From positions 492,183-512,182 of the forward strand of contig JBEWZL010000066.1 of assembly GCA_045837725.1 (NCBI GenBank): 20,000 nt of DNA, given 5' to 3'. The notes below the pieces were generated by a model. It worked only from the letters and a program-made list of their open reading frames with translations, did no database searches and was not told where the DNA came from. The position numbers and the translations under genes were made by a program. This document shows, piece by piece, positions 1 through 20,000 of this stretch (position 1 is the stretch's first letter; each line of letters begins with the position of its first letter). The DNA is from Vermamoeba vermiformis. Lineage: Eukaryota.

Positions 1-3000
1 CGCGAGCTCAATTTGAACCAATCAACGCTATTAAATCTTAAACCGAGGCAATTGAAGCGCCTGCTAAAGATTTGCCCCAAGTTAGAGACGCTGTTCGTTG
101 CTGGTTTGTCCTTGGATGCGAGCAGTGCAGATATTTTAATCAAATACGGCAAAAAACTAAAGTCCCTCGATCTTACGAGCAGTGCCGCTTCGAATGCCCA
201 TTTGGTTCGAGAATTGCCGGATCTGACCTTGCTCATAAGTACGTCGTAGCTTTTACATCCTAACGTTACTGACTCTTACAGACATGAAAAATGAATGGGA
301 AGCGAATAGACTGCCCAGTGAAGATTTTTCCAGCATACGAGAAAACATTACCGTTGTGACTAACCCTAATTTGAGGTAAATATTACTTCATGGTCTTCAC
401 GACGATTTTAACTAATTCAATTCCTACTCGTAGAAACTCGATTTGGAAGGCCAGTACGGCAGAGATTACGGGCATTATTCCGGCCATTAAGAACTTGACC
501 TTTTGCGATGTGTTCGGCTCAACGTTATTCCACAAATTTGTCGACGCAGATACCTCTCTGAACACGTCTGCTCTCTTAGAACATCTCGTTAGAAATCTTG
601 GCTTCAACGTTAATGTATCGTAAGTAGTACCGTCTATCAAAGCACAAAATACTTAGTCAAATGTAGCGTGGTTGATCGTGATCGCGTGAGAATTAACCCG
701 TGGGTCTCGAACTTCCCGTACGACACTGCCCACGACAACATGTACGGCGATGTTAACTGGAATCATGCTACCGCTAAGACTCTCGAAGTGGTAAGTCTAG
801 TGACCTATGTTGGTGGCATTGTGCTTATTTGTATCAGGGCGACACCGCGTTACATAAAGCCGTAAAAATGAATCGCATTTGGCACGCAAAATAGCTTGAT
901 TTCTGTGGGTGCTAATGTCAATGCACGCAACAAGTACGTCCTACATCGGTCCGTTACACTTGTAAATAACGTTAACATTCGATGTTTTAGGGAGGGCCGA
1001 ACACCTCTGTGTTACGCGAACCACGAAGAGGCAGTCCATGAGTTGCTCAAGGCAGGTGCTGATGTGAAAGTTATTGATAGACACGGCTGGTCTGTCGTGA
1101 TGAATTTCATCGCTAACAAGTCCCGACTGCCAAATCGTAAGTGAATCTATTGTCCATCATTTCATTAATTATTTGCACGCAGCCCAAGTGCCTGCTGCCG
1201 CCAGAGCTCGAATTGTCGACGATTTAATTAAGGCTGGTGTTGCTGTTGAACATCGTGCCAAATCGGGACTTTCGGCCCTCGAGGTAAGAACATCAACAAG
1301 GAAATGGAGGCTTTACTTAATGAGTCTTCAGATTGCTTTGCTGAGCGCTGATTGGTCGATGGCCGAGTCGATGTTGAAGCATTCAATACCTCCTAGCAAA
1401 GACGTTCCCAAGAACAGTTTAGGTCCGCTGCACTGTCTCTGTTTAGCAAAGGTTGCAGACGATGGAGTACAAGCCCAACACCAGACTGTGAGTATTAATA
1501 GCTGCCACAAAAGGGCGAGCATTAACAATTGTCCTAGTTGGCGGCGTTGCTCAACTCCGAGTCAGCTGAATTGTTCCGCACCGACGACCAAGGTCAAACT
1601 GCCATGCACGTAGCTTGCATCATCAAGCGATATGACCTCGCTAATAGAATGTTGGTGTAAGTCTTTGGCTTGGAAAACTAACGCGACATTCACTGACCGG
1701 AACAGACACGCGAGTTCAGAAGAGGCAGTCAAGTTGTTCTCAATGCCTGACAAATCGGGCTATACTGCACTGCACTACGCGTTCTTGCCAGAATTGAAAG
1801 AAGAAGCTCCCGATCGCAATCTGCCCTCGTACAGCAGAAGCATGTTGGTGAACGGCAAAGACACGTGGGTGAAGAATTTGAAGCAAGTCAAAGCAAAGCT
1901 GCCTTCGTTAGTTGTGGAGCACGAAGAATTTTTCGTGAATCTGATGCAAGTCACCGGTCTCGATGTGAACGTCAAGTCGCAACACAATGAGACCCCGTTG
2001 TTGCTCTTGTGCAAGTCAATTTGCTCGGACGAAGTCGCTTCTAAATTAGCGCGTCGATTGCTCGAATGCAGCGCCGATCCAAACATTGCTGTAAGCTCTC
2101 ACCACTTGTTTATATTTCGCTAGTTTACTGACGGCAGTATCAAGGATGATCAAGGCACAACGCCGTTACAATTAGCAGCGTACGCCCAAAAAGAAGAATT
2201 AGTCAAGTTGCTGCTCAAGCACAATGCCGATGCCAATTTATCAGATCGCAAAGGAATCAACGCGTTACTTGCCGCTACCATCGGGTGTTTGAAGGTGACA
2301 GAAGAATTTGCCGAGCAGCGCAAGAGAATTGACCAATATAACTCTAACAACGACGAGATCGGCGCTCAAATCGACGATAAGTCGGAGAGGGCTATTCAAA
2401 AGGTCCATGGCATCTTGGATGCGTTGTTGCCTGTGACAAAGGACGTGAACAAGCCCGAGGACGTAAGTTCTACCATCATTCGATGATGAGTTAAATTGAC
2501 ATCTTATTGACGCAGGTTTTGGGCAAAACGGCGTTACACTACTTGTGCGCGTGTACTTCTGTCACCGAAGACATCAAAAAGTTTGTCCAGGAGTACGGAG
2601 CAAGCATGGAGGTCCGAGACATCATCGGCGAAACACCAATCCACGATACGCTGCGAAAGTCTAACTGGCAGAATTTGAAGACCTTGATTGACTTGGGTTG
2701 TGACGTGAACTCTGTAGGCTCACGCGGTTGTTCACGTACGTATATCATACAACATTACAGCTGTGGTCATTCGATTAATGATTGGTTCAACGCAGCTCTC
2801 CACAAAGCACTTTCAACATCCGAAATCTACCGATTGTCACGAGTCGAAGGAGATATATTTGCTGAGGGCTACAAGATTGTCGGGTAAGCACAACACGCCC
2901 TTTGAAAGTCTTGTCTTAACGGTGTTGGCAGTCACTCTTTGGTCTTCTATCCCTCGTGGCTTTGGGTGAGCATTGAAGAGGACGAAACAACAGTTAACAA

Positions 3001-4450
3001 CAACAATCGCGTGTATCGCAACGATTGGGAGTACTACGAGCAAATGTATCGACTGATCTTCGTGTTGTTTACCGTAGCTGACAAGCTGGACTTCAACCTC
3101 GTGAATAGCCGTGGTGAATTGCCACTTCATTTGGTAATATCGGTAAAGCCTGGCTTAAGGTTGTATCTGACATTCTATATTTAGGCTTGGTTCTTTGACG
3201 AGGAAGAACGAGTTTGGGTCGACACCGTGTTCGCTGACTTCCCGTACGTACCCGAAGAACGTGAGCAAACAAGACCTCGCGTGGGTCATTCCTTTGTTGA
3301 TGTTGGAGCACGCTACAAAAGAGCAGCTCAATACGCTCGACAAAACTGGTCAGAGTCCATTCCACGCTTTACTGTGCACCAACTACGTGCGCCCAAGTTA
3401 TTACTCAACGCGATCACCGACGTTCAAACCAGGGTATGTGACATGTATTCTGTAAATGAGCAGTATTAACTCCTGCGTAGTGTGACAAAGATCGTCAAGA
3501 TGTGCTTGGACAAAGGTGCCGATATTGCAGTTACGACTTCAGACGACGAGAACAGTCTCACTATGGCTTGCAGGAACAATGTTTACAGTGATATTCTAGA
3601 GCTTTTGCTTAACCACAGCACCAGCGGTAAGTCACTCTTCCGAAGTCTTTTATCTTCTAATTATGGCTCAGAAGCGTTGGGCAACACGGTTGACAGCAGC
3701 GGTGACACGCTGTTGCATAAAATCCTCAGTGTCAATCGCGATACCCGCGACGAAAATGACGCTGCCGTTACTCTGCTTCTAGAGCGGTTTCCGGAGCTCA
3801 TCAACGAGTACAATAATGAAGGCTTTACACCGCTGATGGTCTTTATCAAGGATTTCGATTACAGCAGTTACAACAGGGTACGAGAGACTATTCGCAATCC
3901 TTAACAGGACCCTAACAATTGGCACAGGGAACTCCACCCAAGTCGAAAGTCAGCGAAACTCTGTTGAAGTTCAAAGGCATCGATGTCAATGCACGCAGCC
4001 AGAGCACGGGTGAAACTGCACTGCATTTATTGTGCTCGTGGTGGTTCCCGTTCAGCATTTTTGGTGCATTCTACAACAACTCTGATTTGTTTTACCACCT
4101 CGGAAATGATAACATGCTCGTTCAACTGATTGAGGGTAAGTCACTTAAAGTTTTGGCAGAGCATCTAACAATTCGACGTAGCCGGTGCCGATCCGTCTAT
4201 TCAGGATAATTCCGGAAGAACTTGCTATGATATTTTACCAAACCTTCGCCAGATTGTAGATAAATATGGACAATTCATGCTTCGGAAGGCAAAATTATCC
4301 GCTCTTCCCAAGCTGGAGCAAGAACTGGGTGAGAATCAACAAACGAGAATCTTGGACATGCTTCAAGTTACATTTGCACATCCCCAACATGGTGCCAATA
4401 ATGATCAGAATGATGACGATAATGATCTTGGATTTGGTTTGTTTGACTGA
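1..4450 (+). CDS. Multi-exon LRR (RNI/F-box-associated type) + ankyrin-repeat protein, 5' end outside the window
   Basis: Successive + ORFs are joined by ~45-55 nt GT..AG introns (e.g. 239-281, 4136-4181). LRR-like CPKLETLFV and KLKSLDLT occur at the start. Many ankyrin motifs follow (GRTPLCYA..LLKAGADV, SGYTALHYA, NETPLLLLC, GKTALHYLC, GETPIHD, GDTLLHKI, GETALHLLC). The last exon 4182-4450 ends ...NDDDNDLGFGLFD-TGA. Confidence 0.9.
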
Positions 4451-4525
4451 AAATGGAGGGTTTGTTGGGTCATTTTATAATAAATATTGGGGCTTGTTTT
4501 ACATAATTAGAAATATATATATTAT

Positions 4526-6100
4526 CTACAGGTCGGCAGATTGACTGGTGCTTGTATGCGTGTTAACCCCAGCGAGCGACTGACGCGTCTGACGATTCTT
4601 GGACGCGTTGTTCGATTTGTCCGTGGAGGAGTTACTGGAACCATTCTTGCGGAAGAAGATCAACGACTGCATCAAGTCGAGAGTGTCCAACACTACGAAG
4701 ATACAGAACCAGAGAGAGCCGCGACCTGAAGGTGAGGACAGGCCAGTGATAACTACAGCCAGGAACAGTGCTGCATTAGCGATCAAACAGATTCCAACAC
4801 CGATAGCCCTGAACGTGATCTGTTATTTGCTAGTCAGTACTTTCATCAATAGAGGCAATACTACAGAAGAACTTACGCGTTCAAGTCGCTTCTTGGTGCT
4901 TTTTTTATGTTTTAAAATGACGATGATCTTTCCTGCGGTGACCAAGTAGAATATGGCGAGACCAAGGGAGACTGCTGCGTTGAAAGACCCGTTGACTTGA
5001 GTCCAAGTGGTTGTCGGCACCGCTACAGAATGTTTAATTCAAACTGCTAAATTGTACTTTTTCTTGCAGCTACGTACTAATTGGATAAACGAAAGCAATG
5101 GCACGGAGTGTTCCGAATGCGATCTCACAACCAAACAACAGGCCGATAATGATGAAGAAAGGCACTTTGAATTTACCCACGAGTTGGTTGACATTGAGTG
5201 ACATGCCGTGGATGACATCGTGCCTAATAAAGGCATCGTTAATATCAAACCAAGAACCGGACGATAGAGTTAACTTACCAATAGAAGGTGATGAGAATAG
5301 TGACCGTTAGTGTGAACGGTTGCGACAAAGTCCATAATGCATGGCCAGCTGAATACGGGTAAATTTGCCGAGAAAACAGTGGATCCACTACAAGAAGATG
5401 GTTAAGACCAAATAGTTATATTCGACAACGTAGCACCGCAATGTTACAAAAATGAAATCTAAAAATACTCACCGGCAACGTAAGCAAAGCGAACTAAAAA
5501 AATAGTTGGTTAATAAATAACTCACCTTGATCGTTTAAAGATCAGACTGACTTATATTTCCCGAAATGATCAACACCAAGCAAATAATAGGCAATTTTCG
5601 GCGTGTTCCGTGCGCCAACAAGTTAAGCATAAGGTTCACTGCGCTAAATACAATCAAGAAAGCGGAGTAGGTGCCCAAAAACGCCGAGAAGAATGGCATA
5701 AAGGTTTCGTTCCATATTAACCAAGGATTATTGCCTAATAAAAATATTGAATTTAGCAAAATTTATACAGTCGAAAATTAATCTAAAAAAGGGTTTTCTG
5801 AATTAAACGTGAATTAAGTGCCCGCTTATTACCTAGTGGGTCGACAGTCGCATTTACTGGAAAAGATCCGTTGGCTAATATTCCGGCAATTCGTGAAAAG
5901 TTTGCGCTCGAGATCTGCCACGCACTTAAATAAATGCCGTCAAGAGATGTTCCGTCGAGGATAAAGTTTGCGCTTCCGGGAGGTCGAGCTATATTAGAAT
6001 AACCAATTAATACTGAACTATGATTAGATTGAGCGCTGTCCCATGTCGTCGAAATTTCACCTAAGGATAAATCGCAACGGCAAAGGCGTATTAATGACAT
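4526..6100 (-). CDS. Multi-exon 7-TM-like membrane protein with an extracellular N-terminal region (start codon uncertain)
   Basis: Minus-strand exons give an N-terminal region with N-x-S/T sites (NHS, NFS, NGS, NAT). About seven hydrophobic segments follow (FFSAFLGTYSAFLIVF; LPIICLVLII; DPLFSRQ..LTVTILITFYW; VPFFIIIGLLF; VSLGLAIFYLV; IANAALFLAVV; LWFCIFVV), then a Ser/Thr-rich tail ending QSADL-TAG. Confidence 0.75.
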
Positions 6101-6729
6101 TAAAGCAACAATAGGATTTAACTCAATGTACGTGACGAGTTATGTTTGAGGCAAAGGAAATCAATTTCAGTTGAAACGTAATAATAATACTAACGGATAT
6201 GAGCGTCGCCGATGATGACACCTAGCGCTCCTCGTGACTGCTGCGATCTGATTTGTGACACGTACATGCCACGATCGTACGCCATTAGCACGAGCATGCC
6301 AGTGACATCCGGTGCTTTTTCGGAGACGATTAAGGCCGTGATAGTCTCGTTGCGGAAGTTGTTCGGGTAAATGATTGGAAAGGCGACGTAAGTGCCTGCA
6401 GCGGGTGACGAGTGAATGACGAGTGTGGCTTGAATACCAATTAAGCAAGCGAGCAGAAGTATAGCGAATGAACCTTAAGGACAATTAGTAACGGATCGAA
6501 ACACCAAAATATCTTGATGTACTTTTCAAATGCAGCATTGTGTCCGTTAGTGGATCCTTCTCGGGAGTACTAATTGAAGATTAATGACGTCTTTCGTTCT
6601 TTTATATTTTACTGGGCTAATTTTGTCGTCCTACTAAAATAGCTATTCCTAATTTAGAATAATACCGTTTTGCGTACGCCGGGTCGGCTAATTATAACCG
6701 CGAGAAATTGTAGTATATAGTGATTAAAT

Positions 6730-8610
6730 TAATGTAAAAATAGAACCGGAAAATAGCCGAAGAGGTATTCGAAACCTGGATCCCATGCAATTAATTTCTA
6801 AATTGGTTATTCAGCCGAACCTTTTGCATTCCATCGATCGTCCATATATTTTAACCGAATATCGTGATGCTCATCTTCATAAGGCAAAGCGTAGGCTGAT
6901 TGAGAATCAAAAGTCGTTGCATCATCTTTAGCAATAATAAATAATCAATTAGTTCAGCGCCGAAAAACTCTATTCATAGTAACAACGTATCTTCTTGACA
7001 ATAGGATAACTTACTTGAAGGATTCCTGAGCGAAGTCCAAGAGGCGCCGATCTGCGGTCCATTCGCAACAAATAGCTTCGCGGGATTAGGATCCCAATCT
7101 AAACGGTAAATGTGAGATGTATGCAATATATTTACCGTATAATAAGCTTAGTTATTCTGAGTAAGCACGTACTAGTCCAGATGCGATGACCACACGGTTC
7201 AGTCGCGCTGCCGAATGTAGGTCACTTTAGATGGCGCGGTACGGCATGTACGACTTGAACTCTTTGAACTCTTTGCTCTCCGTGCTTGACGACCCAGTAG
7301 CAGTGCACGCTGAGTTTCTACGACATTATTGTTAGCGACGGAAATTCCGTATTTTAATACGTCATACCCTAGGCAGTTTGCGGTACGTTGAACTGCGAGA
7401 CAATATGCCAAATTCCTCCCGTCACTCCGAGCACAGCAAACCGCTTGCGAATGGTGGTGGGGATCAACCAGCTGTGAACTATGTTAGCAAAGCTCTCGTA
7501 TCAAAAAAACAAATCTCGTACCTAAAAACACGCCACCCAGCGCAGCACTTCCCGCCCCGCTCGCAATACCCATGCCGAGTGGCACGGCGGTCTTGCAGCG
7601 AAAGATATGATATCTTTTTCGAGATTGACGTGCGAAGCACTTACTTGGCGAGTTCTATTCAATCTTCGACGCCTCGTTCCACAGCCAGTGCGAACTTCAA
7701 TTTCTTTTTGCGCAAAGTCGAACAGCTTTTGTCGCTCTTTTCTAGCCATGAGAACGCGACCGAGATTTAATTCGCAAATTCTTAGGTATTTTAATACGTC
7801 TTCGAATGCATCTTATTTTTAAAATAATTAATATCGCTGATCAATAAGTGTAATTATTTGATGAGCTACCTTCAAGCGCCCTTTTGCTTTTCAATTTCCA
7901 CGCGATTGTCTTTAAATCCCTCTCGCAAATTCGGCACGAATACGACGTCGCCGCCGCACACGATTTGATTTTTAAACATTAAAAGTTTTTCCTTTTTTTT
8001 TTGTTTGGGGGGTGGGGGATGGTATTTTAGGGGCCCCCCGTAAAAAAACCAGGACTGCATAATTATTAGTTAAATAATTAAGGTAGTGGTATAATGGCTT
8101 ACCAGTCAATTAACGCAATGCCTGAATGCTCGATCCGTTCGAACAAAAGACGGCGTAATCGGACTTCGCGACTAAGAGGCACCTGTTTCGTGTTAATAAA
8201 CGTTGAAACTATATCTAAATATAATATTACCTCGGGTAGTCTCGGTGGAGTCAATAATCAACGGCAGTGTCTCGCGCAAATTGTCTTTCGCTGATCCAAG
8301 GATTATTTACGAGCTCTGACAACGCTGTTTTGCGAGGCTCGTCATTAAAGTCGAACGCGTCTAAATAGAGGCAATTAATTTTATTAAGCAGTTATTATGA
8401 GGTGGCTTACCGAACGTCGTGTTGGTGAACCAGCAATTGCCAAGTACTTTTGCCGGCCCTTTTCTCACCGTACAATGAGATGAATAATATTGAATTTTCG
8501 ACGTCGGCGAGTTGCTGGCGGACAGTAATTGGAGTTGCTTGCGAAAGGAGAGTCGGATTTGAATTTTAACGATTTTTCGATTTTACCAATCTCTTCTTGT
8601 TCCATAAATG
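6730..8610 (-). pseudogene. Degenerate or mis-assembled P-loop GTPase gene (dynamin-like/TRAFAC type), boundaries approximate
   Basis: G1 motif ILFISLY-GEKRAGKST at 8469-8443. G3 motif GIALIDCPGF forms across intron 8055-8102 (GTAAGC..CTAAT..TGCAG). Downstream exons join in frame (KRALE|DAFEDVLKY). Frameshifts and stops intervene, especially in the homopolymer-rich stretch 7975-8050. Confidence 0.55.
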
Positions 8611-9281
8611 TCTGATATCTTCGAATTAGTACGAAGGAGTATTTGGAATCGGAACGGCTTGATAATCGTCATTTTCAAATAAAGAAATAAATCGCTCTTT
8701 TAACGCAAAAATAGTCTTCTAAAATATTACTAATAATATGGTTAATAGATAATTTACGATAAAGAATTATTTGAAATTATTTCAGTGCAAAATTCGGACT
8801 GAAAAAATGAATTACTTTGTATTGCGGACACCACCGGGCTGCTCTGCTAATAACGTTATCATTATTATCTGCCTTCATTCAATCTTGCAGTAACTCGGCG
8901 TGGCTGCTTTGGCTCGAGCTGAGCGATACTGAATCCCGCTCCATCCGTTCAATTTCAAATATCACAATACAAGGATCGTCGTTATTTTGTTTTCATCGAC
9001 GCTCGTCTTGGTGTCTAAAACAGGCTTTACTGTTGTCTGAAAAAAAACGTTATCTCTCGCGGCAATTTTTTGATTCAAAATTTCGTGGATTTGGGAACGC
9101 GAGTCTGTAAGTCTGTTCATAGCTTGTTGGGGGTAGGAGCGATGACTATTAAAGATGATTGGCGCCAAGGGACAGAAAAATGCATGAACGTCACGTGTCA
9201 GTCACCAGTCAGAGTTTTGGAACAAGCGAAAGCAATTTTTTTTCAACTTCTGTCGAAGTTACCACAAAATTAACCTCAACA

Positions 9282-9520
9282 ATGTCGTCAATCATTGAAA
9301 AATATTGGAAACGATTTGATTCGCATCCAGCTGAATCGCAGGTAAGGATAATAAATTAAGACGTTTTACGCTACAACGCCAACACATGCCATGGCCTACC
9401 ATACATAATAATAATATGATTAAAATTGTATTACAGTAATTAAATAATGCAGTTGATGATGTAATTTTGACTTTCAGTGGTGTTTCTAGCGCGATCTAGT
9501 TCGTAACATTATTTTCAAAG
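9282..9520 (+). CDS. Putative 5' exons (9282-9341, 9490-9520) of the homeodomain-Ulp1 gene interrupted by the transposon
   Basis: ACAATG start gives MSSIIEKYWKRFDSHPAESQ|GTAAGG. Acceptor TCTAG at 9489 gives RDLVRNIIFK-g|GT. The phase-1 join to 16659 gives ...IIFKEYFEWLITITQIKRH. Confidence 0.5.
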
Positions 9521-9543
9521 GTTACCAAATAGGACACACAAAG

Positions 9544-9580
9544 ATCGAAAGGTATTGTAAAAGTGCATTTGGGTACATTT
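9544..9580 (+). repeat. Left terminal inverted repeat
   Basis: ATCGAAAGGTATTGTAAAAGTGCATTTGGGTACATTT matches the reverse complement of 16585-16621 (ATCGAAAAGTATTGTAAAAACGCATTTGAGTAAATTT) at 32/37 positions. Confidence 0.85.
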
Positions 9581-9583
9581 AGT

Positions 9584-10627
9584 TTATTTACGGTACATAA
9601 ACTTTTGCTTTGCTCTTCTATTATTGTATTGAGGGCGGCCCAGGCTTGGTCTTCCAATAGAGTTGCGTATCACTCTAGGTCGTCCACGCTTTCCTTTGCG
9701 CACTGCATAGTGAAGAGCTTGCTTGTCCTGGTGAGTAATTTCAGTTTGTTCCAGCTCCATTGCCCATCCACTATAAGGACCAACAGATTCTTTGGATACA
9801 TCTTCTGTTGGTACATAGGGAAGCTGTCCCCCTGGTCCTTTCCACCAAATCTTCTTTCCACTGGAGTCAAAGGCACGTTGGGAGTCTTGTTTGCCATACA
9901 CCTTCAGGAAATCATTCTCAAACCAAGTTTTCATTTGAGCATCTTGCATGTTGTAGTGATCTGGTAACTTGGCAATGAATTCCATCACAATTGCATGTAG
10001 AGCATCCAACAGAGTTTGCAAAAACTGAGGTTCGTTCAGGAGGCTAGCAGGAGTGAAAGGTGGAATGTTTGCCTTATGGAGAGTTTCAGCACGCAGATAG
10101 TTTCCAACTCCAGGAAAGAAGTCTTGATCCAGCATCAATACACAGAGAGGAGTAGTAGCCAGGTTCTTGCGGGTAGCTTTCAACTTCTGTTGCAGGTGCT
10201 TTTTGAATGCTGATGGTTCAAGGAAGAAGTCATGTGAAAGAGTGTCAGGCTTGTAATCCACATATATAACAATGTGGTTGCTGGGCTTGTGGAAGAGTCC
10301 AATGACCAAGCCATCTGCACGATGGAAAGCAATAGCCACAAATTTGCTTTCAGCTTCATACTGTTCAGGGGTAAGAAACACAACTTGTCCTTTCATGCTG
10401 AGAGAGATGTAGAGAGTGTGCTTAAGTTGACGTTTTTGCCGCAGCTTGATAATAAGCCACTTTCCAATGGCAGAGGCAGAGAGAGTATACTGTCCATTCA
10501 TGGTAGGTAGGGGCTCTGAAGAAGTAGGTACTTTGTATGGACCAGTGGAGATTGAGTTGAACTTGTGGCCCTTTGCTTTGGCATTGATGGCACTTGCATC
10601 TAGCTTGTTTTCAAGGTATTCTGGCAT
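9584..10627 (-). CDS. NEIL1-like Fpg/Nei DNA glycosylase/AP lyase, intronless, 347 aa, basic AT-hook-like C-tail
   Basis: True start is M-P-E at 10627 (catalytic Pro2/Glu3). It has the conserved GK (SAIGKWL), the H2TH motif LMLDQDFFPGVGNYLRAETLHKANIPPF, and a NEIL1-type zincless-finger region LKVYGK..DSSGKKIWWKG. The tail contains KRGRPR and LGRP. Confidence 0.88.
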   Translation of the reverse strand: MPEYLENKLDASAINAKAKGHKFNSISTGPYKVPTSSEPLPTMNGQYTLSASAIGKWLIIKLRQKRQLKHTLYISLSMKGQVVFLTPEQYEAESKFVAIAFHRADGLVIGLFHKPSNHIVIYVDYKPDTLSHDFFLEPSAFKKHLQQKLKATRKNLATTPLCVLMLDQDFFPGVGNYLRAETLHKANIPPFTPASLLNEPQFLQTLLDALHAIVMEFIAKLPDHYNMQDAQMKTWFENDFLKVYGKQDSQRAFDSSGKKIWWKGPGGQLPYVPTEDVSKESVGPYSGWAMELEQTEITHQDKQALHYAVRKGKRGRPRVIRNSIGRPSLGRPQYNNRRAKQKFMYRK

Positions 10628-10801
10628 TTGTTGTGTTGTCTTTAGAATCAATTTAAAAATGACAGTTTGCTAAGAATTCTCCTTTTATACCCTACTATTT
10701 TAGAAATTCAGCGAAATTTTGACAAAAAATCAACGAAATCTATTACTTCTAGAAGTTTCTCATTTTATTTAACTAGCAAGAATTTCGCAGAACGTCAGGA
10801 A

Positions 10802-12260
10802 CTAATTATTTAATTTCGAGAAGGTTTGCACTACTGCACTGAATGCCTCTTGAGACTCAGCTTGCTGTTGCTGTTGTAACAACAACATGAAATTAGCCTG
10901 TTGTTGTGCCATTGCATGCCGATGGTGCACTTGTTGAAGCTCTAGTAGTTTTTGAAGCTGGAATGGTACGTTGAACAGTTGAGTGACATTGTGCGTGGCA
11001 GGTTCCAAAGCAATCGGATTTGGAGAACAATCTTGATTAGAAAGAGACGGTGCATTTTGAAGAGCACTATCAATCAATGGTTGGGTTGGTTTGAGCAGCG
11101 TCTCTGGCTTGAGCTTTGGAGCCTCCATCACTTTCTTTTGTTGCTTTGGCTTTGGCTTGACACTAACAGAGCTCTCCGAGTCAGAGGATGAGGAGTCAGG
11201 TAATATCTTTGGAGCTGGCTTGCGCTCCTTTCTTCGACGCAGTGCCTGAGGGATTGCTTGCTTTAGCTCTAAGTTCAAGGTTATTAGACAATACTACTGA
11301 TGTTTTTGATTATACCTTTTTTGATTACTGGCACACTCTTCACAGGAGGAGAACGAGAAGAACGAGGTGGTTGGGTACGAGTTGCACTCTTTGGATGCAT
11401 TTCTTTGGGCTTTAATTTGGACTTTGCCGGAGATAACTTTTTTTTCTACAAGGTGAATAAGCTTTTATCTTGATAGATAGCTAGGTTACCTTTGCACTGA
11501 TGTACTCCTTGAATAATATGTCCAGTTGGGGCTGTTGCCCAGAGCTTGTTTTGCCGTGGATTGTCAGGACCTCGCTGAACTTGACCTCGATGACCTTTGC
11601 TAGAGTTGGGTCGGCAAGAAGGACTTTGTTGTATTGTTTGTTTCTCTTAATGAGAAGGACAGTGTGGAGCCCAGCATTTGATTTCAAGGCAACCAAGTCT
11701 CCTGCCTCGATGCAGAAGTTGTCCACTCTTCGAGTCACTTTATAATAACACTTCTTTTCCCAAGGCTCTCCGAAGTAAATGAAGTACTCAGTGATGTCCT
11801 CTGCAGTGAGAGTTAACTATTGTAGAAGTGTACAAACAGTAGGACTTACTCTTGTCTTGTTCGGATGAAACTGGATCGGCGACAGGCTTTTCTTGGCCGT
11901 CCAAGCTAATGGCTTTATCTTCTATAATAATGCATTATAATATTATATTTTAGATAGTAGTGTAATTATTTATTACCTATAGTATTGAGGAGTTGATCTG
12001 AGCTTTTTTCTTTGGATCGAGCTAGATTTGAATCATCGGCAGAATTGTCAGCTATTGAAAAATGAAATTAAGCTTACATTAAGCTAATGTATATTATTTT
12101 ACTATTATATCCTAATTATTAAAGGTAATATCTCATACCTAATGACTTCCGAGATGGATTCAGATCTGAGGAATCAGTTTCAGTCTTTTGCTCGGGAGGG
12201 CTTGCATCTTCAGGGGGTTGTTGGTACTTCAATAATAGAGTTTTCTGGGTTATTAGCCAT
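10802..12260 (-). CDS. Six-exon transposon cargo protein: acidic N-terminus, small beta-barrel (BAH/SH3/Tudor-like?), basic Pro/Ser linker, Gln-rich C-terminal helix; first exon uncertain
   Basis: Exons 12139-12260?, 11977-12051, 11850-11921, 11490-11800, 11316-11445 and 10802-11268 have canonical GT/AG junctions and splice in frame from exon 2 onward. Core: YYKVTRRVDNFCIEAGDLVALKS..TVLLIK..VLLAD..IEVKFSEVLTIHG. Confidence 0.7.
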
Positions 12261-12515
12261 TGTTGTGGTTATCTAATGACTTCCGAGCAACTTCTGATTT
12301 TGTTCTCCCAAAAAAGGAAGTTACCAGGGCTTTGGGCACGAGCCAATTTACCAAGCCATTTTCTTATTACTATCAACAAGATAACCCACAACTACTACAG
12401 CTACTATTAATAATAACATCAATATCATTGGTCATTTTATTCAAAACACTATGGAGATTAATTCAAGGTAAGCCGGGTCAGATTTGATTTTCCTCCCTCT
12501 TCGGAAGTCATTAGA
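12139..12515. repeat. Three copies of CTAATGACTTCCGA (two direct, one inverted)
   Basis: Direct copies at 12139-12153 and 12273-12287 (CTAATGACTTCCGAG); inverted copy at 12501-12515 (TCGGAAGTCATTAGA). Confidence 0.8.
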
Positions 12516-12781
12516 AATTATTCTTTTGAGTTATTAATAATTAAAAGGGCTTTAAAGTACAGCTCTAATAATATCCTAATGAAGGAATTGACAATTTAAT
12601 GAAAAAAGTGATCGGCACAATTTCATATCTGCCTCGCAAGTCATTTCTAATAATTATTCAGTGCTGTTAATATTATATGATGATATTAATATAGTATATA
12701 ATGCACTTATGGGCTTTGTTTTGTTTATGCTTTGTTTATAGCTTATCTTTAATGCCAACTACCCCGTGCCCTCAGTAAAAT

Positions 12782-13242
12782 GTTCGGCAACCAAGTTAAA
12801 TGCACTTGTAACTCCATATACAGCAATCAGATAACTCAGAAAAGATAGATAAATGAATATATTGTCCTATTTGACATTTGTAGCCTTTGCATGGCTTACT
12901 GTGGAATACAAGTTCTGCCGGCAGTCAGATCCAACTTTAACCACTTTCCAACACTACTTTGCCGAACTTCCTAAAGAGTAATTATATGAAGTATTAATTG
13001 TGCATAATATAAACGTGCAATTACTTATCAAATGAAAAATCTTGACTGGTAGTTACAGTTCGGTTGTTGAGTCCTCCCATTGCGCAACTGTTTGCCGAAC
13101 AAAACTAACTTAATATATGCACTTAATACACCACATTATGCCTAATTCAATGATATTCGACTGTCTGAAAAATGACTCAGCGATGATGTCGAAACAAACT
13201 TTGCACCAACTTTTGCACCTCTGGTCTACGACTTTGCCGAAC
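12782..13242. repeat. Dispersed TTTGCCGAAC motif in the divergent intergenic region
   Basis: Exact copies at 12958-12967, 13091-13100 and 13233-13242; inverted GTTCGGCAA at 12782-12790; palindrome CTGCCGGCAG at 12915-12924. Confidence 0.75.
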
Positions 13243-13351
13243 ACTATTTCATTGATAATTGAATATTGTTAATCATTTATAGTTTATATATTATATTGTT
13301 GGCTCGTTGAAAAATCACTGCTCAAGTTAGTGACTGACTTGTCTTTTTTAG

Positions 13352-16300
13352 ATTTCAAGGATTCCTGTGGGGCTCAGCTGGTAGGACTTGGTGAGCTTCC
13401 TCATTAGTAGTACTAACCTAGAAACTAGGAATGAAAGATCTGTGCACTATTGAAACTGTTGCCCTGGTGCTTCGCCTAACACTGCAGTGTATTCCTGATT
13501 TGCAGCTGACTAGTAATTTCTTTCGCTTGCTTGCAACCTGGATTCAATTTGCACCATTATCAAGCTCAGCATTACATCAATTGAAAGTTGATTTAATTGA
13601 AGCTCTTGGACCAGTAGCTGGATGGACTCCGTGCCAATCATACGTTTCTATTGGAGCAATACTGTCTGCTGCTATCAAAACCTTGCCCACAGCTGAAGCA
13701 ACCCTTTTTTGCACTTCTGAAGAGCACAGATCAAATTGCCGCTGCCCCTTAACTATCAAACAATTCAACAACCCAACTGTTTATGTTGCTGAGAAACTTT
13801 CTGACAGTACACTCTCCGTTCAGGCTTCAATTCACCATTTGATAGACTATTGCCAAAAAATGCCTATGCCGTGTGAATTTTGTGGAGAATTTGCAGTGGA
13901 ACATCGTAAGAAACTCCAGTGATGTCAAAGATATATTCTTACAAATGTGTTAGGAACAATGCACCTTCCAACCGTTCTCACAGTGGAGTTGGGCAGATAT
14001 AAGAGACAGTTCACCAATATTAATTTACAAATTGAACCAACTCTCCACTTTGGAGATAGCTCATATAGTCTACTAAGTGCTTTGATGTGTGATGGGGTGC
14101 ACACCACGTGTTACTTTCTTAACAACAACACCACATACTTTTATGATGGGATGCAAAACAATGGTATAGCCTATCGAGTGAATGAAGATATCAATGTTAG
14201 CAAAAACAAACAATACATTGATCATTTGGTGTACATTAAGCAGCAGGTCTGTTGACATTTGTCTGTATTCCAGTATTGACAATCTAAATAGGACCTGGCA
14301 ACTAAGAAAGAAGTTAATGGAATTGCATTGTTTCAATCCATTATATCAAAAGCTGAAGAGGAGCCACTCATCTCTCGCTCATTTTTCAGAGAGCTCACAG
14401 CCGTGAAAGTTCCCTCTCAGAAAGCCCAACATGCAAAGAAAGACAAACTAGTGAGTGAACAGTCAATAACAAAGGGTATGTTTTCGCTTCTAAAAAAACA
14501 CCTCTAACTTGTTTACACCAGTTCAACAAGATAGCTGTTGTAATGCAAGGTGCACTTCATTGTTTACGTATCAACAGATTCTCAAATGTCGCAAAATGGT
14601 AGCTGACATGAATGAAAGTGAAAAAACAACTTGGCTATTGAAATTTATGGGAACCAACATGAATATATCAGATCCTTCAGTTGTGTTTTTGATCAATGGA
14701 ATGTCAGTTTGTCAGTTGGCTTTCTGTCGGATCTATGGTGTAGCCGTTCAGAAAGTGATTCACTGCAAGCAAATGCACCTTAATGGCAGTACTGCAACTC
14801 TACATGGTAATTACTTTCGAGTATATGATACTCCAAAGAGAGACTCTGTTGCAGCATGGATTTCAGCTTATTGTGAAACCTATGGAGACTATGTTCCTAC
14901 AAAGGATGAAATTCACTTACCATCTCATTTAACGTAAGTTTGTGTATAAAATAGAATATGGTTGTAATTGCTAGCTTCAGAAACAAAGAGTGGTACAAAC
15001 TTTTTGCAGAAGAGTGCAAACTGCAACGGCCAACTGAAGATATTCCCAGTTTTGAGACATTCAAGCAAGTGAGGCACAAGCAATTTAAGGTACATTAACT
15101 TGAATCCTATTAATACTAATTATCAATTTAGAATGTTAAAAGACCGAAAGAAACCAGACTGGGAAAGTGCTCAACATGCCTATTAATTAAACAGAAGCGA
15201 CTTCAATCTGGTCTGTGTGAAAAAACTCTTTCAGCTCTTAAGCAACAAATGCAAGATCATATAGCCTATATTACCAGAGATAGACAAGGTTATCGAGTTC
15301 GAACAGATATTGCTATCAAGCAGCCTCACCTCAAGATGAGTGTCATTACGGACAAAAGTGGCTCATTTTGGTTGCCTCATTTTCATCCAATGCCAAAAGA
15401 ATGGACAAATGTAACTTTCCTACCTGTCAGTTTTGTTGGCTTCATCAACCATGGTCTGAACAAGAGAGAATTGGTGTTTTTCAAGGAAACAGATTATGTA
15501 GCAGATTCAGACTTTTACATTTCACTGCTTTTCCATCACCTAAAAGAGTCACTTCTCACTCTAGACCCAGGCAAGAGACCAAGAACTCTTTACTTGCAAG
15601 TAGATAACAGTGCCGCAGAAGGAAAGAACCAGTATCTGCTACAGTTTGCAGCAGCTTTAGTGCACCATAACTGGTTCGATGAAATATTCATTCACTACCT
15701 TCAACCTGGACATACCCATGAAGACATTGATAGATTGTTTCAGTTATTCCACACTTACTTTCGATGGAAAGTTATAGAAACTATGGACCAAGCAGTGGAA
15801 TTTGCCAGAGCCATCTATCCAAAAGACATTCTCATTCGTGAATTACAATGGCCAGTATATTCATGGAAGAAATGGTTTCTTGGCTTTTCACAGTCAATAA
15901 GTGGACATAAGGACAAGTATGCATTTTGGATCAAACCTGGACTTGACAACACTCCTTCTCTTTTGTATAAGAAACAGTCACTGGATAATGAATGGACAGA
16001 AGTTAAAGATGAACTTTTCAGCGCAGCTCCATCTGGTCAGCCTTCTGTGATACAACCCACTTGCCCTTCTGCCGATTTGATTCAAACTATTGTTAGCAAG
16101 GCTCAGAAATTCTTGTCAAAACAAGTAAGCTTTCAACTTTGAAACCGTTTCTTAAGGCTAGTTTAGGCAATTGAATATTTTGAAGCTCTGGCACAATACG
16201 AACCGATTCAAAGTTCTGAAGCAATGTTCTCCATTGGGCAAGTGAAACCAGAAGTGCCTGCCCCAATAATTAGTACTAGCTCAAAACCAGAGGTAGAAGT

Positions 16301-16562
16301 GTTAACCAAAAAGCGCAAACGAGATTTCACTCAGGGTATGCTGTTGGCAACTATTTGAACCAATACTAATTCTTTTCAAGACCAAGAGGAATGGATTGTC
16401 AAAAGAGTAGTTGACCATAGGAAGAATGGAAACAGATTAGAATGGTTGGTTCTGTGGGAAAATGGAGAGCAATCGTGGGAACCACGAAATTGCTTCATTG
16501 ATGCTGACCAAAGCAAAAACCAGGAATGGGCAGAGTATGAACAGAAAAGAAGGAAAAAATAA
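13352..16562 (+). CDS. USP-like cysteine protease - Cys-rich region - Sola1/DUF7869-like DDD transposase - chromodomain fusion (~950 aa; first exon/ATG not located)
   Basis: Exons 13352-13380, 13429-13905, 13954-14246, 14292-14475, 14522-14933, 14975-15089, 15132-16124, 16167-16335 and 16381-16562 splice in frame via 41-48 nt GT-AG introns. Transposase motifs: CCxxxC, VCxxAF..YGV, HGN, GDxxP..LP, KCSTC..H, then acidic residues in VITDKS, QVDNSAAEGKN and GHTHEDIDRLF. Confidence 0.85.
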
Positions 16563-16584
16563 CCAGTTGTCTTATAAAAGTGCG

Positions 16585-16621
16585 AAATTTACTCAAATGC
16601 GTTTTTACAATACTTTTCGAT
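16585..16621 (-). repeat. Right terminal inverted repeat
   Basis: Reverse complement of 9544-9580 at 32/37 positions, followed immediately by AAAG. Confidence 0.85.
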
Positions 16622-16658
16622 AAAGAGTATTACACTAATAATTATTTATTGTTTAAAG

Positions 16659-19600
16659 AGTACTTTGAATGGCTGATAACAATAACACAAATCAAGCGTC
16701 ACGTAAGTTCGAAGACATCCATATCTGGGTGCCAAAACTTTTTTGTTCAAAATTAGGCCTGATAATAGGGCCAATAATAACATACTATTTAATAACATTG
16801 TTATGTGCAAGAGTTTTATTTTTTAAATTTTTTTGGGGCTACATCCAAAATTACATCTGGTCCGATGGGAGCGGGGGTTATAGGGCATATTGTAGCTTAT
16901 CTGTAGACCTTCCTATTGCACGGAATATTGTCATTTTTGGTATGCAAGCAGTTCCTGCCTAGTTCTTGCTGCGTACCAAATTTCGATCCGATCCGTGCAG
17001 GGGTAACTGCAGGCGATGTGCTGAAAACCCCCGCCCAGCAGCCGCACACATCGGAAACCATTCAACTAGTTGTTTGCTAATGTAATCAACTACACTAGGT
17101 CATCCTAAGCTTTATTCCAAGGAGACAAGTAAGTACCTTGTTGCTGCTGTTAATGCACCTGGCTGATTGACTCTTTAGGGCAGCGAGGTCGCGAGGTTCG
17201 TGTAAGTGTTGCCTGATGAGCTTGTAGTTGTATTGTTCATAAACTCCCCGCGATGGGGCATTTACTCCGCGATGGGGTTGCAGCAATTACCTCCGCGATG
17301 GAGTTTTATTCCGAGATGGAATTTTGTAATACCGCGATGGGTTTATTTCCGCGATGGAAGTGCTGTCTTTGTGATGAAGACTGTTTAATTAAAATAAATA
17401 GAAATTAATGTTTATTTTAGAAAAAGCGCCGTGAAAGAGATAATATGTTGGCTCGGGAGAAGGAAATGGAGTGGCTTCGACAACTTGAAGCGCGAGTGGG
17501 GTATGTTCTACTCTTTAGTTCAAACTCAAATCTAATTGCTGTAGTCCTGTTGTATGCAATCTGTTAACTGCTGTGGCTCATCCTCATGCATTAAACAAAA
17601 GAGTGCAGCGAGCTTTTGCTGTGCAAACGGCACAGAATATGGTGTACTTCACACTAGATGTTATAACGAAGACAAAGTGGGATTCTTTTTTCGTTGTTGC
17701 AACTGTTCTACCATCAATTCGCAGTTATGCTATTGATAATGGACTTGGAGACCTTTATCCACTTACTCAACCATTGACGGTCACTGGCAATGTCAAGTTT
17801 AGTCTTGGACCGGCAACTCTAATGAATGCCGTTGGCTGCAGCACTGTTAATTTACCACGACTTACTCCAGAAGATCAAGATCGTTTTGATGCGGTACGTT
17901 TCTATTACTCTTTAATTAATGTCTAATTGTTAAATAGATACACAATGAGATTGAATTGATCAAAAACTCTGTTCAGAATCAAAATTTCAAAATTAATGGA
18001 GCTGTGACAGAAGCAGCGGATGCAACAAAAGCTGCCAAGTCGATGGATAAAAAGATAATGGATGTAAGCTACTATGCTGCTGGTGTTAAACAATTGGTAT
18101 GGTACATTGGCATTTAGGACCACTGCTAACTTTCGCTTAGGTGGACACTGTTATTGAGAAGCAAAAGCACGACAGAAGATTTGCTGAAACAATGGCAGCT
18201 GAGAGCCACAGACATATACCAGTGAAATACATTGAGACTCTGCTCCTCTTGGCTCGAGACCTGCCAAAGCCAAAGCCCACAGCTCCTAAAACTCCTGCAC
18301 CCACTCGTCCTTCTCCCAGACCTGCTGCTCCTGCTCCTAATAATGCTAACAACACTAATAATAACAATAATCAATAAGTTGTATCTGTTTTTCATCGTAT
18401 TGACATTTTTTTACATTAAAGATCTCAATAAACGAAGTTGATATTCAAGACAAAGGTAGATCTGCAGTGCTGCACTTAAAGAATAAATTCTAAATTCTCC
18501 TGTTTAGGAGCTGCTTTGTTAGAAGAAAGTATTGCCCTAAGCAAGCTATTGGATTCTATGCAGCCCTCTATGCATTCAATGGCAATGGACGAAACTACCG
18601 AAGAGCAACAATATTCTGAGCACGTAGCAGAAATTCTGCAATCATTCCTGCATATGAAAGGTAAAGAACTAATGTTACAATCTCTTTCTTACTTTACTAT
18701 GTAGAATACCTTGAAGCGTCTAAAAGCGCAACAGACGACTCAATGGATTTTGAAGTTAGCACCAATGTTGAAACCTTGGCACAAGATGAGTGCAAAGCAT
18801 GCTCTGTTGACAAAGAGGGTCTATCAGAGTTCTTAACAAAAGGCCCGACAGAATCAGGATTTAAAAGTTTCAATATTAACGGAAAAGCTCAAGCTGAAGT
18901 GGATCGTGGTAAGTAATAGTTTTTCAATCACCAAGTGATTAATGTTGTGCAGAGGACTATTTGAGCAAGAAAGAGTGGGTTGCACTGCACAACTTTTATA
19001 AAACTGTTACTCACCCTACAAAATTTGAATGTGAGTTGATGGCTTCTGCACTAGGAAGATATTGGACTGCAGCAAAAGTACAAAATTGGTTTCAACATGA
19101 AAGAAGTCGCAAGCATCCATCCAAATATAATTCCTCAATTATCGAAGAGAAGGATAATCAGATTTGGAATGATTTTTGCTCAAGTTATGCCTTTGAGCCA
19201 GATATGTTGCTACTTCAGCAAATTCAAAGCGCAAAGCAAAGATGCGCTGCTTTCCTTGCTGGTTCTGACACAAAGAAATTCTTGATCAGCATTGACTATG
19301 CTGTTGGAGGCAAATCTGTGGAGTTGATGAATTTATTACAAGCAGTATATGAAGACAAGCATACCCCAGATTACAACTCAAAGCAGGAGGCAGCAGTTAT
19401 TTCACAGCTTTTTGACTGCAACATAACAGACTTGCCAATCCATGTCCCTGTAAAGGAATTACGCAAACGTAAGTCATTTCTTTTTGCTACTTTAGCTAAT
19501 TTAACTCAGAGGTTAAAGTGACGAAAACTTATCCTGTTGTAAACAACTGTGCCTGGACAGCTGGTTCTTTTTTACTTTGTACTTGCAAGCCTCAAAATCC

Positions 19601-20000
19601 AACTCACTGTACCCCAACTCCCTTAGAAGGAACAGATGATGATGAAATATTCCATGTAATTGAAGGATCCAAGTGGCGAAATGATATTGTGCACACCAAG
19701 CACATGAAGTTGTTGCTCTGCATTACAGAACCAGATGCCGGAAGCAAAAAGAATCCAAATCCCACCTACATTGACGACGTCGTAATTGACACAATAATGT
19801 TGAACCTTAATGCTGTTCGAAAACGTCCCATCTATTTTCTATCCGCAAAAACGTTGGCCTTTTATGCACAACACGGGCATACTCAGTACCTAATGGACAA
19901 GTTTGATCAAGCAAGCATGTTGAATTCAAACTCTCTATTTGTGCCAGTAAATTATCATAATAATCACTGGCAATTATTGGAGGCAGATTTTGTAGCTGAA
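16659..20000 (+). CDS. Homeodomain + Ulp1/SENP-like (C48) protease gene, 3' exons; runs off the window; in-frame TAA at 18375-18377
   Basis: Exons 16659-16702, 17421-17500, 17545-17893, 17938-18096, 18141-18374, 18422-18455, 18508-18660, 18705-18908, 18953-19468 and 19510->20000. Homeodomain LSKKEWVALHNFY..HP..LMASALG..KVQNWFQHERSRK at ~18961-19115. Ulp1-like YIDDVVIDTIM..YFLS..LFVPVNYHNNHWQLLEAD at ~19765-20000. Confidence 0.75.
17246..17359. repeat. Array of six CCG(C/A)GATGG units, each a mini inverted repeat
   Basis: Core starts at 17248, 17267, 17293, 17311, 17332 and 17349 (spacing 17-26 nt). Confidence 0.9.

Follow-up and report, generated by a model that had tools for sequence, protein, structure and literature searches.

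A recently active terminal-inverted-repeat transposon of Vermamoeba vermiformis carries a NEIL1-like Fpg/Nei glycosylase gene as an integral component

A 20,000-nt stretch of the Vermamoeba vermiformis genome (assembly GCA_045837725.1, contig JBEWZL010000066.1, positions 492,183–512,182 of the forward strand; hereafter the window, numbered from its first letter) contains an intronless gene for a NEIL1-like glycosylase of the Fpg/Nei family. It belongs integrally to a DNA transposon that has been active recently and is bounded by terminal inverted repeats (TIRs); it is conserved and selected, and its product is catalytically plausible. We regard it as very probable that the open reading frame (ORF) serves an active TIR transposon, apparently of the DDE type, as a core accessory gene and is not the host NEIL1 locus, and that the protein comes from a deep, separate branch of Fpg/Nei enzymes in which the two-domain fold of NEIL1 is combined with a zincless-finger hairpin. 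The analysis followed up an earlier note, made from the letters of the sequence, that had singled the gene out as transposon cargo.

The two TIRs (Table 1) enclose a 7,078-bp element that carries the glycosylase gene, a DUF7869 transposase and a second conserved gene. Relatives of the glycosylase, 63–69% identical, are encoded at four metagenomic loci (L001–L004). The similarity of L001 and L004 to the window, in both DNA and protein, spans the gene and ends at positions 9539–9544, which is the outer end of the left TIR. Beyond its own TIR, L001 continues into an unrelated leucine-rich-repeat (LRR) gene, and the far side of the window holds ankyrin-repeat ORFs (Pfam, 1614–3901). The gene is thus very probably not the sole syntenic NEIL1 orthologue of the host, the outcome that the earlier note had named as fatal to its proposal: homology stops at the TIR and a different gene follows.

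The same limits were found in a DNA sequencing run of the same organism (X1). A 7,066-nt contig from this run covers exactly 9544–16621, from TIR to TIR, and differs from the window copy by 24 substitutions and 12 gapped letters (~99.7% identity); the six insertion or deletion events that separate the window copy from the X1 consensus all fall at 12004–12908. The word depth of this contig in X1 was 15.4, versus 2.8–4.6 for short junction contigs, and at least two different flanks adjoin each end of the element, diverging at 9544 and at 16621/16623. Given the TIR-to-TIR contig, the branching flanks and the ~99.7% identity, the element is therefore repeated, TIR-bounded and young. Near-identical copies were also found in water and aquifer metagenomes, which hold 0.54–0.71 of the sampled words. 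The TIRs, the homology of relatives that ends at them and the X1 contig all place the gene inside a multi-copy unit, in agreement with its description as cargo.

At the outer ends of both TIRs, the plus strand reads AAAG, a candidate 4-bp target-site duplication; with one copy to judge from, the match could also have arisen by chance (probability 1 in 256) or from a preferred target. L001 has CAAAG outside its TIR and L004 lacks it, and the flanks of the X1 copies are too short or too mixed for a duplication to be judged.

The glycosylase ORF is the longest in the window (361 codons from stop to stop), followed by the transposase exon of 336 codons. The absence of introns noted earlier is real, but the transposase also has a long exon. 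The intron density is a prediction, in that plus-strand ORFs are split by in-frame stops, each of which can be bridged by a GT..AG intron of 41–63 nt that leaves the frame open. Because the separating stops are TAG and TGA mixed and each can be bridged in this way, an alternative genetic code was rejected. The glycosylase stop codon occupies 9584–9586 and is separated from the left TIR by 3 nt (9581–9583), essentially the 4-bp gap given previously. The AATAAA at this stop is also present in L001, and L004 has AATAAT there. At the other end of the gene, conservation of the family begins exactly at M1, and the in-frame residues upstream of it vary among lineages. No RNA data set was listed as containing this sequence; three RNA runs labelled as the same organism, whose presence in those runs is not established, gave 0, 0 and 1 reads on 9001–17000; the single read lies at the right end of that stretch (bins 16477–17000).

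Sequence searches assigned the protein to the Fpg/Nei family. Pfam recognized the Fapy_DNA_glyco N-terminal domain (26.3 bits, above the cut-off of 25.5), in a match that ends at profile position 103 of 117, and H2TH at E 9.9e-8 and 32.3 bits, just under the cut-off of 34.7. The Neil1-DNA_bind family (PF09292) was absent at E≤0.1, though the structural model and the alignment show a homologous hairpin. In a sequence search of the PDB, human NEIL1 was the best match (E 9.5e-11; 1e-12 with a profile), only across residues 155–269; the profile values against the mimivirus proteins MvNei1 and L720 were 1.4e-4 and 1.7e-7. An exhaustive HMMER scan of 1.84 billion representatives returned 315 matches at E≤1e-3, of which the sole one below 1e-30 was the protein's own cluster, with the next-best matches at 1e-24 and 5e-17.

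The AlphaFold2 (AF2) model of the glycosylase, built from 93 sequences, exhibited a predicted local distance difference test (pLDDT) score of 83.7, with values above 90 across most of residues 1–270. Among the Foldseek matches listed (to rank 50), all were human NEIL1, with template-modelling (TM) scores of 0.77–0.85 on the target. A structure search independent of Foldseek also placed human NEIL1 at the top (Z 25.9, root-mean-square deviation (r.m.s.d.) 2.5 Å over 254 residues, 26–27% identity), followed by Escherichia coli Fpg (Z 20.0), L720 (4mb7; 19.1), Arabidopsis FPG (18.9), MvNei1 (3a42; 18.7), NEIL3 (18.0) and Nei (17.7). The ten best solved Fpg/Nei chains span Z 17.7–25.9; M. smegmatis Nei2 gave 16.1, and NEIL2 (6vji) gave 10.4 with an r.m.s.d. 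of 14.2. The zincless-finger β-hairpin is formed in the model by strands 250–253 and 259–262. An overlay on human NEIL1 and mimivirus Nei1 had been proposed, and the predicted fold turned out to be closest to the former, with the latter further off. The Pfam N-terminal domain, the best PDB match and the Z score of 25.9 agree with the original identification of a divergent NEIL1-like glycosylase.

Residues were assigned from an alignment of the five family members and from a 93-row Fpg/Nei alignment. M1-P2-E3, E6, G55-K56 and M78, the first void-filling Met, are invariant in the family, and all five members start with MPE. G55-K56 aligns with the RGKE consensus, where the family reads IGKW. The H2TH core GVGNY(L/M)RAE is present, with G173, N176 and P190 invariant over the 93 rows and FNG changed to FPG, and Y225, aligned to Tyr244 of NEIL1, is kept in the family. 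The Pro2/Glu3 pair, the GK lysine and H2TH, read as retained from the window copy, are invariant or present throughout the five-member alignment. Pro2, exposed by removal of the Met, would retain Schiff-base glycosylase and β,δ-lyase chemistry together with Glu3, Glu6 and Lys56.

Around this core, the loops corresponding to those for the lesion and the orphan base appear to have been rebuilt. The DxRRFGxW consensus is missing in all five members and an invariant HKPSNHIV hairpin stands there instead, with ~15 residues, including RGPDP, gone; the replacement of the NEIL1 loop (FHKPSNHIV) that the earlier note had read by manual alignment is a property of the whole family. The lesion loop reads YNMQD, which is family-specific and invariant. 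In the zincless finger, GxxIWW aligns with the NEIL1 finger, and the Arg of 'GRTIW' is Lys in four members; the fifth, P0005, keeps Arg, so that the reported Arg-to-Lys exchange holds for most of the family but not for all of it. Finally, four of the five share a conserved C-terminal extension made up of VGPxSGW, a helix at 299–311 and AT-hook-like repeats (KRGRP and GRP). This is the tail reported as KRGRPR, which is cut off in the P0005 lineage (P0005, P0011, P0012 and L004) by a stop just before the AT hooks; the coding potential of the tail is still visible downstream. In L004, this stop falls at ~820–830, and the gene is also frameshifted near position 400. The early stop and frameshift in this lineage could reflect either recent decay or a tolerated truncation.

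The same extension was found in distant metagenomic proteins, namely P0013 (35% identity, E 3e-34), P0022 (4e-20) and P0167 (2e-20). A VGPxxGW...GRP extension is common to P0013, P0022 and P0029/P0167, which are 24–35% identical to the glycosylase; at the level of sequence, this suggests that NEIL-like proteins bearing it form a wider uncharacterised clade.

These substitutions bear on what the protein might do. In NEIL1, the loop between strands 7 and 8 supplies Arg118 and Phe120, and in NEIL2 and NEIL3 this loop is truncated; NEIL2 is mainly an AP (apurinic/apyrimidinic) lyase and NEIL3 prefers single-stranded DNA (PMC10711445). With Met78 retained and the second loop, the source in NEIL1 of the residues that face the orphan base, replaced, the enzyme would in this respect be NEIL2/NEIL3-like. 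The resemblance lies in a second void-filling loop without the Arg/aromatic pair; unlike the glycosylase, NEIL2 and NEIL3 have zinc fingers and inserts of their own, and the glycosylase loop is swapped for a conserved hairpin, not merely shortened. The YNMQD loop probably sets a new base preference, and the AT hooks of the tail probably keep the protein on A+T-rich DNA and in the nucleus. Because the orphan-base and lesion loops are both replaced by invariant family motifs, a changed specificity is indicated rather than a standard one. We infer a Schiff-base glycosylase/lyase with rebuilt orphan-base and lesion loops.

The same changes could be taken to mean that excision has been lost and that the fold is kept as a chromatin tether, with AT hooks and H2TH binding DNA or AP sites and recruiting host factors. 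The lost RRFG motif, the change from FNG to FPG in the H2TH motif, the Lys in the finger and the added AT-hook tail all fit a binder of this type. However, Pro2, Glu3, Glu6 and Lys56 are invariant in five of five members at only 67–70% overall identity, and the position of the start is conserved such that Pro2 is N-terminal, features that matter only for catalysis. A non-catalytic role thus appears improbable.

At the opposite extreme, the protein could be a base-excision repair (BER) glycosylase of the ordinary NEIL1 type that acts on general oxidative damage, kept for protecting the DNA of the element or for benefiting the host under stress. Such a role has been proposed for the Nei enzymes that viruses encode. 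In favour of this reading, the protein retains the catalytic residues, the fold is NEIL1-like, purifying selection is strong and virus-borne Nei clusters are nearest by language-model features, which we treat as a lead only. Yet an enzyme acting in trans across the genome would bring little copy-specific benefit, and both base-facing loops have been exchanged for motifs found in this family. For these reasons we find a general oxidative-damage function distinctly unlikely.

Selection was assessed by the Nei–Gojobori method, which gave ratios of non-synonymous to synonymous rates (dN/dS) for 7 of 10 pairs of family members; L002, L003 and L004 belong to one lineage. In six of these seven glycosylase pairs, dN/dS was 0.067–0.194 with dS of 1.5–3.2; the seventh was saturated, with a pN/pS of 0.26 (the relatives are 63–70% identical). 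When the window copy was set against the X1 consensus, synonymous and non-synonymous differences numbered 2 and 0 in the glycosylase gene, 3 and 0 in the DUF7869 exon and 2 and 0 in the ORF2 domain (7 and 0 in sum), compared with 3 and 8 in less conserved parts (ORF2b, ORF3 and small exons). As judged from these sequence comparisons, the gene is under purifying selection in related elements. Neutral decay, which the earlier note had said would refute its proposal, is at odds with these ratios and with the retention of the gene; the loss of the tail in the P0005 lineage and the frameshift in L004 are consistent with it locally.

A quick maximum-likelihood (ML) tree, with rows that carry no taxon labels and with long branches, was built from 73 rows. 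Of the 93 aligned, a row was included if 200 or more of its core residues were present, three partial sequences with the tail were added, and 20 rows were dropped. With 100% support, the glycosylase family forms a clade whose stem measures 1.57 changes per site. It falls outside the 57-row canonical clade that bears RRFG (Shimodaira–Hasegawa-like approximate likelihood ratio test (SH-aLRT) 89), in a poorly split basal group with other tail-bearing sequences. Within the reach of these alignments, the family is a deep, separate branch of Fpg/Nei.

The position in the tree, taken with the limits of the element, bears on whether the gene is simply the host NEIL1 orthologue or a recent passive capture between inverted repeats. 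Although a NEIL1-like fold would be expected of such a gene, the unit is multi-copy with exact TIR limits, its relatives end at the TIR with unrelated flanks, the clade stands apart on its long stem from the canonical sequences, and the gene has stayed intact over distances at which dS is saturated. This reading is largely refuted, and we consider it highly improbable. Retroposition or a virus, both raised before, may be the origin of the gene, and the label-free tree cannot separate capture from a host from a viral source. In a protein-language-model atlas, viral Nei clusters are nearest (0.95), a lead only; in structure and sequence, the two mimivirus Nei proteins with solved structures lie further from the glycosylase than human NEIL1 does; and no close relatives were found among IMG/VR viral contigs or GTDB genome contigs.

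The base composition of the element offers a clue to its target. The 9.5-kb left flank has a CpG observed/expected ratio of 1.26, compared with 0.41 for the element and 0.25 for the glycosylase gene, and the depletion in the element is accompanied by an excess of TpG and CpA. In 1-kb steps, the ratio is 0.93–1.56 over 1–9000 and drops at the element border to 0.27–0.61 inside. The related elements L001–L004 have ratios of 0.22–0.36, and 18001–20000 in the window is likewise depleted (0.43–0.45). A loss of this kind is what germline CpG methylation followed by deamination, or a deaminase-type defence, classically leaves behind; here the element lineage bears the mark and the adjoining host sequence does not.

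On the strength of this contrast between a CpG-poor element and its CpG-rich surroundings, a cytosine-directed role is proposed for the enzyme. It would remove modified, oxidised or deaminated cytosine derivatives, or cleave the resulting AP sites, in the chromatin of the element, and the excision would counter methylation-linked silencing or mutational decay. Base excision on a cytosine-derived modification or damage is our leading mechanism, which we advance tentatively and would not call probable. The proposal is modelled on the TET/JBP-bearing transposons of fungi (described below) and on the demethylation pathway, in which NEIL1 has been reported in 5-carboxylcytosine (5caC) excision and in TDG turnover (PMC5566547). 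More specifically, the element might encode its own 'eraser' of a host silencing mark on DNA, in the form of a re-tuned NEIL glycosylase/lyase, tethered by AT hooks, that excises modified cytosine or handles its oxidised or deaminated products at the element copies and works with a chromodomain-bearing transposase and a chromatin-facing ORF2; this fuller version is doubtful.

Several observations weigh against the transposon-borne, cytosine-directed interpretation. The CpG depletion persists despite the enzyme, and it could have other causes, such as a deaminase-type defence, an earlier host or a dinucleotide bias. The proposal presumes cytosine methylation in the host, and the function of the enzyme is read from its sequence and predicted structure. 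Loss of the RRFG loop together with the Arg-to-Lys change in the finger could weaken or abolish glycosylase activity on duplex DNA, and the P0005 lineage either manages without the tail (or the gene) or is losing it. The Chromo match of the transposase, at 18.8 bits, falls under the Pfam cut-off of 25.1. Beyond the source organism, the linkage of glycosylase and transposase comes solely from two equal 7,167-nt contigs (described below).

An enzyme of this type could instead assist transposition, by acting as a lyase of the AP/deoxyribose-phosphate (dRP) type or by processing transposition intermediates, such as target-site duplications with gaps, ends that are damaged or single-stranded, or the site left by excision. 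Academ transposons carry XPG, and the gene is conserved with its element, in which it is integral and terminal. The remodelled second void-filling loop also fits, as NEIL2 and NEIL3, in which this loop is cut short, favour AP sites or non-duplex DNA. However, we know of no DDE cut-and-paste pathway that needs a glycosylase or a β,δ-lyase, a lyase of this kind leaves blocked 3′ ends that need further host enzymes, and nothing in the sequence ties the enzyme to the TIRs. A nuclease carried by a DNA transposon is exemplified by the KolobokP His-Me endonuclease (PMC9587614). On balance, a helper function in transposition seems unlikely.

The glycosylase may be compared with known systems. Human NEIL1 (5itr, 4nrv and others) shares with it the two-domain Fpg/Nei fold, H2TH, the zincless-finger hairpin, the Pro-Glu start, the GK lysine, the first void-filling Met and Tyr244; the glycosylase differs in lacking the Arg118/Phe120 loop, in the Lys finger of four of its five members, in YNMQD, IGKW and FPG, in its helix and AT-hook tail and in being encoded by a transposon. 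MvNei1 and L720 are NEIL1-like and have a zincless finger. They, too, are Fpg/Nei enzymes encoded in a selfish genome, but by their Z scores they are more distant from the glycosylase than is human NEIL1.

Accessory enzymes of DNA transposons are known and include nucleases, helicases, proteases and TET/JBP dioxygenases. Fungal DNA transposons (KDZ, EnSpm, Helitron and other lineages) carry TET/JBP enzymes, which have been proposed to erase silencing marks (PMC12730594). As in our element, a conserved DNA-modification or repair enzyme adjoins the transposase; in contrast, the fungal enzyme is a dioxygenase rather than a BER glycosylase/lyase, the transposase families and hosts are others, and the available portion of that source describes no glycosylase cargo. 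No description of a transposon-encoded Fpg/Nei glycosylase was found in the full-text literature, a search whose coverage excludes Repbase and supplements (for example, the tables of PMC12730594). A DNA transposon with an accessory repair or modification enzyme is known, but one that conserves a glycosylase of base excision among its genes is apparently new. If the enzyme is active, it is a natural experiment in re-engineering the lesion and orphan-base loops of NEIL1, could be developed into a tool or probe to detect modified bases and gives direct access to the ways in which a mobile element withstands genome defence based on cytosine modification. If it does serve as an eraser, it would represent transposon-borne active demethylation or counter-mutagenesis outside plants and fungi, on a glycosylase fold not known for this activity.

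The remaining genes of the element are arranged in two divergent sets (Table 1). On the minus strand, ORF2 lies upstream of the glycosylase gene and has a counterpart in L001 at 417–1664. On the plus strand, the two ORFs of ORF3 would be joined by a predicted 48-nt intron, GTAAGA..TAG (13906–13953). Neither ORF2 nor ORF3 matched a Pfam family or had a PDB sequence match better than E 0.18; by loose resemblance only, ORF2 may be Tudor- or chromo-barrel-like and ORF3 USP-like.

Table 1. Positions of the features of the element in the window
Feature	Position	Strand	Remarks
Candidate 4-bp target-site duplication AAAG, left copy	9540–9543		Adjoins outer end of TIR
Left TIR	9544–9580	+	37 nt, 86% complementary to 16585–16621
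AATAAA, possible poly(A) signal	9583–9588	-	Overlaps glycosylase stop; read from the sequence, putative function
Intronless NEIL1-like Fpg/Nei-family glycosylase gene (P0001)	9584–10627	-	347 aa, begins MPEY, no internal stop
ORF2, downstream exon	10805–11293	-	K/S-rich, Q-rich C-terminal helix (LLELQQ.HHR...); C-terminal part conserved in L001–L003
ORF2, conserved ~110-aa domain	11484–11816	-	60–66% amino acid identity to L001, L002 and L003 (tblastx)
Central A+T-rich region between divergent gene sets	11817–13421		GC 0.34–0.39; presumed promoter region
ORF3, or upstream exons of plus-strand gene	13422–14252	+	Two same-frame ORFs split by TGA at 13920
Further predicted transposase exons	14292–15095	+	Joined by 41–63-nt introns, prediction only
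Transposase catalytic exon, Pfam DUF7869 (PF25273)	15132–16139	+	336 codons, E 4.7e-39
Chromodomain-like C-terminal exon of transposase gene	16359–16559	+	Pfam Chromo E 0.0016, 18.8 bits, weak
Right TIR	16585–16621	-	Pairs with left TIR; also matched by L004 TIR
Candidate target-site duplication AAAG, right copy	16622–16625		Adjoins outer end of TIR

The catalytic exon of the transposase matches PF25273 nearly end to end (positions 2–190 of 192), its nearest clusters in the protein atlas are eukaryotic DUF7869 proteins and its relatives are 68–72% identical. Its AF2 model, from a shallow alignment (pLDDT 63.6), shows the strand–helix order of an RNase-H-like core. The top structural matches (Z 7.3–8.9) were Mos1, Metnase, retroviral integrases, IstA and Sleeping Beauty, the best being Mos1 and Metnase at 8.9, SIV integrase at 8.6 and IstA at 8.0, where a Z near 8 is borderline. 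Candidate catalytic motifs (ITDKSG, QVDNS and GHTHEDID) are conserved. The model is thus borderline but consistent with the exon encoding an RNase-H/DDE-like transposase core, and the chromodomain-like tail hints at chromatin-guided integration. A relative of the transposase (P0163, 72% identity) and a relative of the glycosylase (P0003) each lie on a 7,167-nt Logan contig, which suggests the same gene set in another lineage. In the full-text literature, no paper on DUF7869 and no superfamily assignment for the element were found. Compared with DUF7869 proteins of eukaryotes, the domain here sits in a complete TIR unit with a chromodomain-like tail and two accessory genes, so that a domain that is uncharacterised and widespread in eukaryotes gains a genomic context of TIRs, accessory genes and recent activity.

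Other features of the window lie outside the element. At the right edge, 18943–20000 (plus strand) holds an ORF with a homeodomain (Pfam E 1.6e-5), followed by an open-ended ORF with an 'HW..L' motif that recalls ULP1 proteases; this ULP1-like stretch (19500–20000) gave no Pfam match. This region, CpG-depleted as is the element, may be a second mobile element. On the left, 1104–2123 (plus strand) consists of two same-frame 510-nt ORFs in tandem, split only by an in-frame TAG (at 1611, and again at 2121). They adjoin the upstream side of the clear ankyrin-repeat ORFs (2124–3901), and 1614–2120 itself gave a weak Ank_2 match under the cut-off. Finally, short direct repeats of 16–20 nt (consensus near TTACCTCCGCGATGGA) are present in three to four copies at 17260–17360, outside the right TIR, and in one copy inside the element (12143–12158).

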